Assembly (NCBI GenBank): GCA_019309485.1
Contig: JAFDGC010000003.1
Coordinates: forward strand, 6,851 to 70,850
DNA from: Deltaproteobacteria bacterium
GTDB lineage: Bacteria > Desulfobacterota > Desulfobacteria > Desulfobacterales > UBA2156
Direction of reading: 5' to 3'
DNA: 64,000 bases
Shown piece by piece: positions 11,396 through 45,749 of this stretch (position 1 is its first letter; each line of letters begins with the position of its first letter). Under the pieces are notes generated by a model. It saw only the letters and a program-made list of their open reading frames with translations. It did no database searches and was not told where the DNA came from. A program made the position numbers and the translations under genes.

Positions 11396-11423
11396 GCCGA
11401 CAATGGGTGCATCCCCCTGTTGT

Positions 11424-11537
11424 GGAGCCCCCCGCTCTGAAGAGCGGGGCTCCCCGGTAAGGAAAGTGTCTATTTTAAGTACGCTTCCCGCAAGCCCCGT
11501 CTTAAAAGGCGGGGCTTGCGGGAAGCGTTCCGGTCAA
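11424..11537. repeat. double-hairpin palindromic intergenic element, copy 1
   Basis: Hairpin 1 is at 11424-11453. Hairpin 2 pairs 11481-11499 with 11510-11528 (19/19 bp). Both ends recur inverted at 40461-40768 (22/22 and 28/29 nt). Confidence 0.75.
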
Positions 11538-11574
11538 CATTTTCTGATCCGCATCGCTTTGTCCCGGTGATTCT

Positions 11575-38728: not shown

Positions 38729-39856
38729 ATGTATTTTCGGGTTGTTGGGATTGATGAACGATGCATTTGGAAAGGGTTTTCGAAGGTGTTGCTGACCCCC
38801 GTATCCATCCGAGAAAATTTTGAAAAACGCGAGTGCACCTTTTTGGCACCCTTTGCCTGCCTGAGTTCCCAGACCCGGGGACGCCTGCGCGGGGAACCCC
38901 CGTGCCCGGTCCGTACGGCCTTTCAGCTGGACAAATTTCGCATCGTGTATTCCAATGCCTTTCGAAGACTCAAGTACAAAACCCAGGTCTTTTTATCCCC
39001 CCTCGGGGACCAGTACCGGACCCGCTTGACCCATACCCTGGAGGTAGCCCAGATCGCCACCACCATCGCCCGCGCCATGCGCCTGAATGAAGATCTGGTG
39101 GAGGCCATCGCCCTGGCCCATGACCTGGGGCACCCCCCTTTCGGGCACGGCGGGGAAGTCATTCTTAAGGAAATCTGCTCCGGGGGCTTTTCCCACCATG
39201 AACAGAGTCTGAGAGTGGTGGATGCCCTGGAGAATAACGGTGATGGCCTAAACCTGACCTTTGAGGTGCGCGACGGCATCCTGAAACATTCCAAAGGATA
39301 CGGGAAGATCATCCCGAACAACCCTGAAGAACTTCCATGCACACATGAAGGTCGCGTCGTACGCATCGCGGATATCATCGCCTACCTGAATCATGACCTT
39401 GAAGACGCCATCCGCAGCGGCGTCATCACCAGGGACCAAGTCCCGGCCTCTTGTGTCACGATCCTGGGAAACAACCACATTGAACGGGCCACCACCATGA
39501 TCATGGATGTCATCAAGACCAGCACTCCTTCCACCGGGGAGTTTCTCTTGAACATGAGCGATGAAGTCTTTGGGGCCATGAGTGAGCTGCGGCATTTTCT
39601 GTACGACAACGTCTACCGGGCAAAGCCGGTCCACCGGGAATTCATCAAGGCCAAAAAGATTCTTTCCGAGCTGTTTTCTTTTTTCATGACCGAAGACGAA
39701 TTCTTCGAAAAAGAACTCAAACGCATGGGACTGCGGGGGATCACCGCCTCGGCGGAAAACCGGGAGCGCAGCGTCTGTGATTTTATGGCTTCCATGACGG
39801 ACCGCTACGCGCTGGCCCTGTATCATAAAATCTTTTTTCCCGAACCCATTGTTTAA
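38729..39856 (+). CDS. dGTPase-like HD-domain triphosphohydrolase
   Basis: FQLDKFRIVYSNAFRRLKYKTQVF, RLTHTLEVAQI and ALAHDLGHPPFGH. The start is uncertain (ATG at 38729 or GTG at 38786). Confidence 0.85.
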   Translation: MYFRVVGIDERCIWKGFSKVLLTPVSIRENFEKRECTFLAPFACLSSQTRGRLRGEPPCPVRTAFQLDKFRIVYSNAFRRLKYKTQVFLSPLGDQYRTRLTHTLEVAQIATTIARAMRLNEDLVEAIALAHDLGHPPFGHGGEVILKEICSGGFSHHEQSLRVVDALENNGDGLNLTFEVRDGILKHSKGYGKIIPNNPEELPCTHEGRVVRIADIIAYLNHDLEDAIRSGVITRDQVPASCVTILGNNHIERATTMIMDVIKTSTPSTGEFLLNMSDEVFGAMSELRHFLYDNVYRAKPVHREFIKAKKILSELFSFFMTEDEFFEKELKRMGLRGITASAENRERSVCDFMASMTDRYALALYHKIFFPEPIV

Positions 39857-39865
39857 GCCCTTCCG

Positions 39866-40501
39866 ATGAATCCCACCCCCGAGGAATTCGACGGCCGTCC
39901 GGAAGCATTGGATGGGTTCCTTGGCAACCTGGATCGTTTGTACGCCGAAATGGATCAGGCATATTCAAAGACGGCGGCGGACTACGGCTTTTATTGCACC
40001 GGCTGCAGGGAAAGCTGCTGCCGGACGCGTTTTTTTCACTACACCTTTCTCGAGTACCATTACCTGCTGGAAGGATATCGGAAATTGGCGGCGCACCTTC
40101 GGCAGGACGTGCTTCATAGGGCCGGGGTCTACCAACGGCGCATGGAAAACTCTGATGCGGCGGCGCTTTCATTCGACGCATTCTGCCCCCTCAACGATAA
40201 AGGCGCCTGCATTTTATACGCGTGGCGCCCCATGATCTGTCGGCTTCACGGCATCCCTTATGAACTCCACACACCGGGGAAACCGGTGCTTCGGGGTCCG
40301 GGATGCCCCGTATTCACGCAAACCTTCGGGGCCGTTTCTTATGTGCCCTTTGATCGGACACCCTTTTATAAGGCGCTGGCCGCCCTTGAGCAAAATCTCC
40401 GAAAGACGATGGGCGTTTCCCGGGGAATCAAAATGACGGTGGCCGGGATGCTTCTGGATTTTGACCGGAATGCTTCCCGCAAGCCCCGCTTCTTAGGGTA
40501 G
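39866..40501 (+). CDS. YkgJ-family (CxxCxxCC-type) cysteine-cluster protein
   Basis: FYCTGCRESCC...FCPLNDKGACILYAWRPMICRLHG. The last ~13 codons lie inside the repeat element. Confidence 0.6.
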   Translation: MNPTPEEFDGRPEALDGFLGNLDRLYAEMDQAYSKTAADYGFYCTGCRESCCRTRFFHYTFLEYHYLLEGYRKLAAHLRQDVLHRAGVYQRRMENSDAAALSFDAFCPLNDKGACILYAWRPMICRLHGIPYELHTPGKPVLRGPGCPVFTQTFGAVSYVPFDRTPFYKALAALEQNLRKTMGVSRGIKMTVAGMLLDFDRNASRKPRFLG

Positions 40502-40768
40502 GGTTGAAAGAAGCTATCTTTGACAAGATCGTAAAAAGGCTTTTGTGAGGGCCGTTCAAGCCTTTTCGGAAAAAGAGAGACAAAGGGTTGAGCGTTAAAA
40601 ATCTCAAGCTGTTTGAGACACTTGTGTCGAGTTCTTGAGATTTAGCGAAACCCTTTGGATCTCCCGAAAAGGGTTGCGGCGCGAACAAAATCAGCCTTTT
40701 TACGATTTCATCATCTTTAAATGGGTATTTTCCTTACCGGGGAGCCCCGCATGCAAGGCGGGGGGATC
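40461..40768. repeat. palindromic intergenic element, copy 2 (inverted, expanded by ~200 nt including a 179-nt rod-like hairpin at 40528-40706)
   Basis: Its ends match copy 1. 40461-40489 is 28/29 identical to the reverse complement of 11509-11537, and 40729-40750 is 22/22 identical to the reverse complement of 11444-11465. Confidence 0.75.
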
Positions 40769-40779
40769 CACAAAACGCC

Positions 40780-41568
40780 ATGAAGTATTTTGAAGATATC
40801 CAAATGGAAAACCTTCCGGGAAAACACCTGGATCCCGATACGGTTTTTCACTTTTCCTGTCATCCCAAAATCGGCTGTTTCAACCGATGCTGTCGAAACC
40901 TGAATCTGTTTTTACATCCGTATGATGTCTTAAGGCTCAGGAAGGCACTGGGAATCCCTTCCGATGACTTTCTGGAGGGCTACGTGGACGTGGTTCTCAG
41001 AGACGAAACCTATTTTCCGGATGTCCTCCTGAAAATGGCCGATGAAAAGGAAAAGCCTTGCGTCTTTCTTTCGCCTTCCGGTTGCACCGTATATGCCCAC
41101 CGGCCCCATACCTGCCGGCTCTATCCTTTGGAACAGGGCCGGTTCTTCGACGCCACCACCGGTGAAACCCGGCTGGTCCACTTTCTCCGTCCCTTTGAGT
41201 TCTGTCTGGGGCCCCTGGAAAAGGCCTCCTGGACCCCCAAGACGTGGTCTGAAGATCAAAAGGCGGATCTTTATAATGAAATGACGATCCTTTGGAGCGA
41301 TCTCAAGCGTCTATTTCGAGAAAACCCATGGGGGGAAGCCGGCCTGTCGAGCCCTAAGGGGAAGATGGCCTTCATGGCGGTTTACAATATCGACCGGTTT
41401 CGGGAGTTTGTGTTTGGCAGCTCGTTTCTGAAACGCTACCTCATTGCGCCCGCGGTGGTGAAGCAGATTCAAAAAGAAGATATTGAATTGCTGAAATTCG
41501 GGTTCGACTGGGTCAAATATCTGGTGTGGGGGATTCCCGGTCCCCATTTCAAAACAGGATCGGGATAG
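40780..41568 (+). CDS. YkgJ-family (CxxCxxCC-type) cysteine-cluster protein
   Basis: FSCHPKIGCFNRCC...PCVFLSPSGCTVYAHRPHTCRLYP. Confidence 0.6.
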   Translation: MKYFEDIQMENLPGKHLDPDTVFHFSCHPKIGCFNRCCRNLNLFLHPYDVLRLRKALGIPSDDFLEGYVDVVLRDETYFPDVLLKMADEKEKPCVFLSPSGCTVYAHRPHTCRLYPLEQGRFFDATTGETRLVHFLRPFEFCLGPLEKASWTPKTWSEDQKADLYNEMTILWSDLKRLFRENPWGEAGLSSPKGKMAFMAVYNIDRFREFVFGSSFLKRYLIAPAVVKQIQKEDIELLKFGFDWVKYLVWGIPGPHFKTGSG

Positions 41569-41614
41569 GCGCCACAGGACCGCCAAAAGCCTTTTGGAAA
41601 CGCCCCGCCCGGTC

Positions 41615-42430: not shown

Positions 42431-42803
42431 GGGGTCGATCCTCCTTGTTGCATCCTTTAAAAAGCCGGGTCACCCATCGATGTCCCATGGCCAACAGGTT
42501 TAAATCATCCAAGGCGTCGGCATCGATTCCACGGCGACCATCTGTGCATTCATACCGGTGTCCGCTTCCCGGACGGGCTCCGTTGAAGTTCCACATCGTC
42601 AACCCCCGGCGCCCGGACACCAGCGACCATGTGGAGATGAAAGGGCTTCATGAAGCCGTCCGTTTCTTTTTCGAAATGAACGGTTCCGATCCGCCAGAGG
42701 TAACAGTTTCCGCCTTTTAGTCAACAAAAATCGTGGAATCCAAGGCCGATTTCATGCATGGGCGAAAAGATGGAACCGGAGGGATTTTTTGCCGTGAAAG
42801 TGC

Positions 42804-42832
42804 TTGACAAGAATCCTTATGGATGGTAATTG
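42804..42832 (+). promoter_or_regulatory. candidate sigma70 promoter of aprBA
   Basis: TTGACA (42804-42809), a 17-nt spacer, then TAATTG preceded by TGg (extended -10). This implies a 5' UTR of about 250 nt. Confidence 0.4.
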
Positions 42833-43087
42833 AACTCTTTCTTTATTGCGGGGGGGATTATTCCATCTGATTGAAATCAGAATTAATTTATGGATCCTGG
42901 AACAGCATACCCTTTGGCTGAGAGAAAAGGGGGATTCGATAAATCGGCCCGGCGACGAAACCCGGATAGGGCTCGGAATGAAGGGGGGTGTAAAAAGGAA
43001 AACTTGTTTTAGTGATTTGACCCAAGAATTTAAAGAAAGCTGCAAAAGAAACCATTTTTGCACAAAAATGATGAGGAGGTAATGTAA

Positions 43088-45644: not shown

Positions 45645-45657
45645 ACGATCCCCGGTT

Positions 45658-45718
45658 ATGGGTGATATACGAGGGGTGATCGTTTTCACCATTGGATCGC
45701 CCGTCGCCTATCACCCAT
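45658..45718 (+). promoter_or_regulatory. structured qmoA leader element (10-bp inverted repeat enclosing a second hairpin; three GGGTGAT units)
   Basis: ATGGGTGATA (45658-45667) pairs with TATCACCCAT (45709-45718). The inner hairpin is GGTGA/TCACC (45675-45690). Confidence 0.4.
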
Positions 45719-45749
45719 AACCCAATACCTTACAGTACGGAGGGATGGC

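Follow-up and report, generated by a model that had tools for sequence, protein, structure and literature searches.

Between two genes just upstream of the apr locus, a DNA stretch of 64,000 nt from a member of the Desulfobacterales (Deltaproteobacteria bacterium, lineage UBA2156; contig JAFDGC010000003.1, positions 6,851 to 70,850; the whole stretch is called the window hereafter) contains a long hairpin, which a first-pass annotation placed at 40528-40706 and read either as a nested miniature inverted-repeat transposable element (MITE) or as a structured small RNA (sRNA). With a probability of about 0.9, positions 40522-40712 are a 191-bp MITE that was inserted into the hexamer ATCTTT within another short dispersed repeat, here named Rep-A. 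At 191 bp the element is within the about 50-600 bp expected of a MITE, and it has no coding capacity; terminal inverted repeats, a site-specific target duplication with a constant length of 6 bp, dispersed copies and a paralogous empty site in Rep-A were all found, and the earlier proposal that a larger element harbours a nested, non-autonomous MITE is thereby borne out. Anatomy and mechanism are those of a typical bacterial MITE. A trans-acting, staggered-cutting transposase of the DDE type would have inserted the element into ATCTTT, with duplication of the hexamer; we infer both the type (DDE) and the identity of the transposase serving the MITE. The parts of the element, in window coordinates, are as follows.

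40522-40712, + strand: 191-bp MITE, a non-coding, full-length imperfect palindrome containing the 40528-40706 hairpin, recognised from the folds, a self-inverted match and ten copies.
40522-40541, + strand: left terminal inverted repeat, GACAAGATCGTAAAAAGGCT; it is conserved across the family copies and recurs as GAYRRNNTCGTAAAAAGKC in at least 34 other short elements.
40693-40712, - strand: right terminal inverted repeat, whose reverse complement is GATGAAATCGTAAAAAGGCT.
40516-40521, no strand: left target-site duplication, ATCTTT, the same hexamer on both sides of the element, supported by a boundary-shift control.
40713-40718, no strand: right target-site duplication, ATCTTT, on the same grounds.
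40528-40541/40693-40706, 40561-40569/40664-40672, 40581-40589/40649-40657 and 40599-40608/40634-40643, with the apex at 40617-40628: paired blocks of the hairpin.

When the region was compared with the window by blastn, its self-complementarity spanned 40521-40713, beyond the hairpin first described on both sides. The rod at 40528-40706 exists as annotated, and its limits fall 6 nt short of the true unit (40522-40712) at each side. No target-site duplication had been seen at these borders because they were drawn 6 nt too short at either end; a 6-bp direct repeat of ATCTTT is present at 40516-40521 and 40713-40718. The terminal inverted repeats are about 20 nt long and imperfect, with GACAAGATCGTAAAAAGGCT and GATGAAATCGTAAAAAGGCT matching at 17 of 22 positions, and in one copy (L042; L numbers denote the loci compared) both ends read GATGGCTTCG... 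and match at 19 of 20. A 4-bp duplication, in which T...A would belong to the termini, was considered as well and is disfavoured, because the outer bases in three copies (L004, L018 and L013) depart from A/T but agree on both sides.

Further copies of the element define a family. Metagenome contigs were scanned with a pattern demanding both termini; of the 15 loci obtained, 8 were true homologues and 7 (L006, L009, L010 and L014-L017) were rejected as unrelated chance matches to the pattern. Three true copies are on different contigs of one sediment assembly (OSEO01) with the same coverage (about 6.3-6.5x), and two are in one JGI metagenome. Two more copies are carried by species-representative GTDB metagenome-assembled genomes (MAGs), namely L042 ('uncultured delta proteobacterium'), matching at 91.6%, and L138 ('uncultured Desulfobacteraceae'), matching at 94.6%. 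A stricter scan of the genome collection, demanding CGTAAAAAGGCT at both ends, gave no match at all; it missed the GTDB copies because their termini differ slightly, and a degenerate single-terminus pattern found them. The family occupies ten independent sites, each 191 bp long and 92-98% identical, and its copies differ by point substitutions only, except for one compensated 1-nt shift in L042. The copies have mutually unrelated flanks and lie, without exception, between genes or at the end of a gene. In orientation relative to the neighbouring genes, three copies are co-directional with both, two are opposite and three are at convergent or divergent junctions. No similarity to the element was found in annotated plasmid and phage collections, and nine matches in viral contigs were dismissed as chance, all of them being single, unpaired and inside coding sequence.

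The duplications that bound the family copies are 6 bp long, perfect in 9 of the 10 copies and of 9 distinct sequences: ATCTTT (window), ATAAAA (L004), AATGAT (L007), AAGGTT (L008), AAGATT (L011), AAAATT (L012 and L138), TTATTT (L018), AACTAT (L042) and the imperfect pair TTTTTT/TGTTTT (L013, 5/6). In the boundary-shift control, a perfect repeat was present in 9/10 copies at the proposed ends (mean 5.9/6) and in 0/10 at offsets of 1-12 nt (mean 1.2-2.2). These site-specific 6-bp repeats at the ends of the family are a transposition footprint.

The site before insertion is represented by paralogues of Rep-A, a dispersed intergenic repeat of about 125 nt with two GC-rich hairpins (GCTTCCCGCAAGCCCCGC.../...GGGGAGCCCCGC-loop-GCGGGGGGCTCC). 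The following parts and copies were recognised.

40458-40515, + strand: left part of Rep-A, consisting of the leader and a degenerate first hairpin, which matches window 11540-11483 and the copies in L004 and L008.
40719-40773, + strand: right part of Rep-A, consisting of the spacer and the second hairpin (GGGGAGCCCCGC/GCGGGGGGATCC), which matches window 11479-11420 and stops 6 nt short of the downstream start codon.
11420-11540, - strand: intact Rep-A paralogue, equivalent to the empty site, with a single ACTTAA-type hexamer where the copy at 40k has ATCTTT-MITE-ATCTTT.
Elsewhere: further Rep-A copies at L004 6881-6994 and 7374-7486, L008 8939-9053 and 10690-10765, L005 2540-2641 and L011 22-66.

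The flanks of the MITE thus recur inverted at 11420-11540, where they are only about 3 nt apart (blastn against the window). If the 191 bp are deleted together with one of the ATCTTT hexamers, the remaining sequence and intact Rep-A (window 11k, L004 and L008) form a gap-free alignment. At the exact position of the MITE, intact Rep-A has a single hexamer (ATCTTA in L004, for example), which identifies the element as a MITE nested in a second repeat. Rep-A and the MITE are both short, dispersed, intergenic and hairpin-bearing, and they occur in the same set of genomes; their sequences, however, are unrelated, and terminal inverted repeats and a target duplication are seen in the MITE only. For Rep-A, neither of these features nor an Rfam match was recognised.

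The hairpin itself is as first described. The five complementary blocks are all in place and perfectly complementary when read directly from the sequence, and folding of both strands confirmed that the 179 nt form one long rod. As RNA, the + strand of these 179 nt folds at -89.3 kcal/mol, compared with -45.6 +/- 4.1 kcal/mol in dinucleotide shuffles (z = -10.6; 0/200 as good), and the - strand at -72.4 kcal/mol (z = -9.3); the 191-nt version as single-stranded DNA (ssDNA) folds at -52.6 kcal/mol (z = -9.3). The rod is retained when the entire 361-nt intergenic region is folded. It was also correctly noted that no credible open reading frame (ORF) covers the hairpin: the sole ORF across it (86 aa, 40428-40688, minus strand) is spurious and extends beyond the 191-bp element into the flanks. 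A scan of the whole window against Rfam at gathering thresholds found only 2 tRNAs and left the hairpin unmatched, and a permissive Rfam scan of 40300-40900 gave chance-level matches only, far below threshold. Consensus scans of 39800-41600 detected no sigma-70-like promoter and no intrinsic terminator.

The terminus of the family extends to a wider group of elements. DNA near several family copies contains other short elements with unrelated interiors and the same terminus, and when 185,579 species-representative genomes were scanned for a degenerate form of a single terminus, at least 115 loci were detected. The scan matches listed are overwhelmingly from Desulfobacterota MAGs (Syntrophus, Smithella, Smithellaceae, Syntrophales, Desulfobacteraceae and Desulfobacterales), and among them single MAGs gave 7-12 contigs; those listed in other phyla are scattered, single and unpaired, which is consistent with a chance background calibrated on viral contigs. 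In at least 34 other elements of 131-215 bp, with unrelated interiors, the two ends are inverted copies of GA(Y)(R)nnnTCGTAAAAAG(K)C, and 31/34 superfamily elements found in the loci listed have perfect 6-bp repeats. The pooled target hexamers are 85% A+T, versus 48% in the flanks, and follow the consensus AWNNWT, with A in 92% at position 1 and T in 92% at position 6. Two more superfamily elements lie near apr in a relative of 77% identity (L020, 8038-8190 and 12502-12655). They belong to a different family of the superfamily, 153-154 bp long and with the sequence GATGGCTTCGTAAAAAGTCCATCTGC..., and one of them, with AAAATT, is immediately upstream of aprB. The same GATGGCTTCGTAAAAAGTCCATCTGC... 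family was also seen in L008 (at about 9702) and L013 (at about 1173).

In two cases, a pair of superfamily elements stands side by side and re-uses one target: AAGGTT[191]AAGGTT[156]AAGGTT (L008 6341-6693) and AAACTT[162]AAACTT[162]AAACTT (L062 2449-2778). Copies of the 191-bp family abut the terminus of another element in L011 (160-377) and L012 (7150-7383); the arrangement in L011 joins a full copy to a solo terminus, and the two moved together as one unit of 218 bp. These tandem and abutting insertions with a shared target suggest a preference for insertion beside resident copies. Rod shape as a general property of the superfamily was considered and rejected: only 3 small elements among the 34 other members fold as a single rod, and because most superfamily elements fold otherwise, the rod is not required for mobilisation.

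In addition to the MITE family, these results define a broader set of short elements with the GAYRRNNTCGTAAAAAGKC terminus and AWNNWT target in uncultured Desulfobacterales and Syntrophales. Many terminus matches face outward at no more than 20-50 nt from the end of a contig (for example in L034, L044, L054, L083 and L099). Probably these repeats break short-read MAG assemblies in Syntrophales and Desulfobacterales, the contig-end positions of GAYRRNNTCGTAAAAAGKC elements being frequent enough for them to fragment such assemblies. They could also be used as markers of recent mobile-element activity and of horizontal exchange between syntrophic and sulfate-reducing lineages. Literature searches, whose coverage did not include ISfinder, brought up no account of the 191-bp family or of a terminus GAYRRNNTCGTAAAAAGKC combined with a 6-bp AWNNWT target; the family and the wider terminus-sharing superfamily thus appear to be undescribed in the searchable literature.

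Several observations weigh against the assignment as a nested MITE. Additional copies, which the first-pass annotation had proposed to search for, were found dispersed in metagenomes and MAGs, whereas the approximately 94 kb examined of the window's own genome contains a single copy only. Neither the 1.17 Mb examined nor the contig flanks yielded a transposase or an autonomous element with these termini. The same locus is present at about 99% identity in three JGI metagenome contigs (L001-L003), and all three of these population variants bear the insertion, so that no polymorphic empty allele was seen; the two single-nucleotide differences inside the element in L003 are uninformative. The closest orthologous locus (L019, 93.6% DNA identity) is without the entire middle of Rep-A, including the target hexamer, and because this hexamer is missing it is not a clean orthologous empty site. 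Finally, the high identity of the copies, the compensatory changes in the hairpin and a bias of G.T over A.C mismatches, described below, hint at constraint beyond selfish spread.

The search for the transposase covered the same 1.17 Mb, in which no pair of termini 0.4-4 kb apart with a 6-bp repeat was detected. Several candidates were rejected: a 4.2-kb interval between two termini in L012 holds proA-proB-obg-rplU rather than an insertion sequence (IS), the ORFs just inside orphan termini are housekeeping genes, and the putative autonomous partner in L043 is murE-murF. No multi-copy protein recurs among the loci, and the source contig beyond the window contains no transposase. Based on resemblance of the insertion footprint, the best lead to a parent would be an IS4-related family such as IS1634. 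The duplications of the IS1634 family were described as 'five to six bp AT-rich tracts' and its ends as poorly conserved, and ISH3 duplications typically have A on one flank and T on the other (PMC2266710). The superfamily duplications (6 bp, 85% A+T) agree with the 5-6-bp AT-rich tracts of IS1634, and the A at position 1 and T at position 6 resemble the A/T flanking in ISH3; the likeness is one of footprint only, as the DNA searched yielded no IS1634-type transposase between such termini. The transposase of this orphan superfamily could also represent a new IS group.

Whether the hairpin is more than a by-product of its ends was addressed by an analysis of the 68 consensus pairs of the 191-bp family, which are 98.4% paired. 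Compensatory substitutions, for which the first-pass annotation had proposed to look, do occur: 6/68 pairs changed on both sides with pairing kept, versus 2.1 +/- 1.0 in shuffles (1/500) and 0-2 in slid controls. Three of these six, however, lie in the termini of L042, both ends of which switched to GATGGCTTCG. The three interior double changes are 40/152 (C-G to U-A), 88/114 (G-C to A-U) and 98/107 (A-U to G-C), and for the latter two G.U intermediates exist in other copies. Nine transitions in the interior paired columns lack a compensating change; on the + strand of the window each of them is C>T or A>G and forms G.T, and none forms A.C; the three A.C-forming transitions each occur only alongside a compensating partner. 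The same transition classes are represented by 2 against 4 in unpaired columns. By our own calculation, p for the G.T bias is about 0.002 in a one-sided binomial test and about 0.011 in a Fisher test against the unpaired columns; a scripted Fisher test that also counted the compensated changes gave p = 0.13. This is the pattern expected if pairing is kept in one single strand, RNA or ssDNA, and it is taken as a hint, being post hoc and based on few events.

An extended reading was thus considered, in which the element is a MITE and is in addition subject to strand-specific selection on a single-stranded hairpin, either as ssDNA or as RNA (an mRNA stabiliser, a ribonuclease III (RNase III) substrate, a read-through attenuator or an sRNA from an internal promoter). 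Besides the compensated pairs and the one-sided mismatches, it draws on the + strand folding 17 kcal/mol better than the - strand, and on the co-direction of the window element with its flanking genes, by which it would sit in any read-through transcript. Small numbers and a post hoc test stand against these points, matching ends are to be expected in the termini anyway, where half of the double changes are found, and most superfamily members are not rods. An RNA role gains no support from orientation, which is mixed among the family copies (3 co-directional, 2 opposite, 3 mixed), nor from the promoter, terminator and Rfam scans of the locus given above. The extended reading is accordingly considered unlikely, and it is a little more doubtful still that the rod is maintained by selection on one specific single strand rather than being a by-product of two similar ends. 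If it were so maintained, the family would rely on the hairpin in single-stranded form, either to propagate, through an ssDNA step that still yields 6-bp duplications, or to serve an RNA role in the host, candidates for which include the uncoupling or tuning of formerly overlapping genes next to apr-qmo.

The strand-specific pairing signal, the extensive potential for ssDNA hairpins and the lack of a DDE partner in the DNA searched could also be explained if the repeat were moved as ssDNA by a Y1 (HUH) transposase, as an IS200/IS605-derived PATE or a REP/RAYT element, rather than by a DDE enzyme. Elements of the IS200/IS605 and REP/RAYT types carry subterminal hairpins recognised by a Y1 transposase and are not known to have terminal inverted repeats or to duplicate their target. 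In the present elements the terminal inverted repeats and the 6-bp duplications are present and regular, most superfamily members are not hairpins overall, and no Y1 transposase gene was seen beside any copy, so this mode of movement is very improbable.

The possibility that the copies are primarily paralogous genes of a structured sRNA, or a family of cis-regulatory RNA, is in accord with the very stable fold, some covariation and the absence of an ORF. It would leave unexplained that each copy has a 6-bp direct repeat of its own exactly at its ends, that the terminal inverted repeats are common to dozens of elements with unrelated interiors, and that a precise empty site exists; with mixed orientation, unrelated neighbours, no promoter or terminator consensus and no Rfam match in the scans above, we regard it as scarcely credible. 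For the same reasons of orientation, consensus and Rfam, a stand-alone sRNA, a sponge or an RNase III substrate, which the first-pass annotation had held equally possible, is not supported as the primary identity. Recognition of the hairpin as a mobile element instead of an RNA gene averts a false sRNA annotation beside the apr-qmo genes of sulfate reduction. That the palindrome arose by chance, or is a transcription terminator of unusual length confined to this locus, can practically be dismissed in spite of the location between two co-directional genes, given the z-score of -10.6 with 0/200 shuffles as good, the lack of any terminator-like site in the scanned interval and the ten dispersed copies, which already refute it.

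Among known systems, the nested MITE is closest in anatomy to bacterial MITEs, the non-autonomous derivatives of DDE IS, with which it shares a size below 300 bp, the lack of an ORF, terminal inverted repeats, a duplication of fixed length, dispersal in many copies between genes and a nested position in other repeats; it differs in that no parent IS was found in the 1.17 Mb and contig flanks examined. The nearest functional analogues may be intergenic palindromes of the Correia/NEMIS, ERIC and RUP types. Correia/NEMIS elements of Neisseria are 100-160 bp long with inverted repeats of about 26 bp, lie between genes, form long hairpins when transcribed, and alter both transcription and mRNA processing or stability (RNase III). 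Their insertion duplicates TA, and to our knowledge they are restricted to Neisseria. The effect proposed here for a read-through transcript would be similar to theirs; the duplication, in contrast, is a variable 6 bp instead of TA, and the termini appear to differ from the characteristic 26-bp Correia repeat. ERIC/IRU and RUP/BOX of enterobacteria and pneumococci, at 100-130 nt, are likewise imperfect palindromes and are transcribed together with their neighbours; RUP, which duplicates TA, is presumably mobilised in trans by a transposase of the IS630 family. Their termini, target duplications and hosts differ from those of the present element, and similarity was checked only through the lack of matches in Rfam and in the plasmid and phage collections. 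Because target duplications and termini differ, the MITE is not placed in the Correia/NEMIS, ERIC or RUP families.

The two genes that flank the insertion are as follows.

39866-40501, + strand: upstream gene, 211 aa, weakly CxxCxxCC-like (PF03692, 19.6 bits, below the cut-off of 23).
40780-41568, + strand: downstream gene of the YkgJ type (CxxCxxCC), 42.6 bits.

Both had been annotated as paralogous YkgJ-type genes, which is clearly right for the downstream gene and only weakly supported for the upstream one. The MITE is co-directional with both. In the window the genes are 278 nt apart, and the spacer consists of Rep-A and the MITE; in more distant orthologues (77-68% protein identity) the genes overlap by 4 or 14 nt, without any spacer, and the C-termini are unrelated. 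In the window, the upstream gene thus ends within repeat DNA: its last approximately 15 codons and its stop codon are encoded by the left part of Rep-A. The position of this stop varies in the population (40497-40507 compared with L001-L003): TAG in the window gives 211 aa, and in L001 a C in place of the T of the stop extends the ORF by two codons to 213 aa. Both stop codons are within repeat-derived sequence.

In the closest orthologue, L019, about 250 bp are absent between two AGCCCCGC octamers. What is left at L019 816-870 is a short fused Rep-A without about 64 nt (plus the MITE) of window 40458-40773; it forms the 3' end of the upstream gene, which overlaps the downstream ATG by 4 nt. 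In this comparison (L019 816-870 / window 40458-40773) the upstream protein ends in …ASCEPRLQGGGIHKTP versus …ASRKPRFLG. The difference between the two loci looks like a deletion mediated by direct repeats, or the converse.

Rep-A and the MITE would thus have separated formerly overlapping genes by 278 nt. A read-through transcript would carry a hairpin of about -89 kcal/mol, and the upstream protein would have gained a repeat-encoded C-terminus; we infer a loss of translational coupling together with a strong hairpin in the read-through mRNA. The locus provides a testable case of the remodelling of an operon by small repeats, in which overlapping, probably translationally coupled genes became separated by 278 nt of strong structure and the insertion of repeats rewrote the C-terminus of the upstream protein in a gene pair adjacent to apr-qmo.

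Some minor features were observed around the locus. In relatives, a third CxxCxxCC (YkgJ-type) gene is located on the minus strand between an SDR gene and aprB (L020 11642-12376, L021 6946-7701 and L023 11657-12382). It is absent from the window, where 42431-43087 is about 650 bp of non-coding DNA upstream of aprB. The aprA-qmoA intergenic region contains an inverted repeat at 45654-45722, with 28-nt arms that are 86% complementary and a 13-nt loop. On the source contig, about 8-10 kb to the left of the window, there is a CRISPR-Cas adaptation module (Cas7, Cas4, Cas1 and Cas2, according to precomputed Pfam labels; L148 1-2469, contig Ga0366835_1002597).

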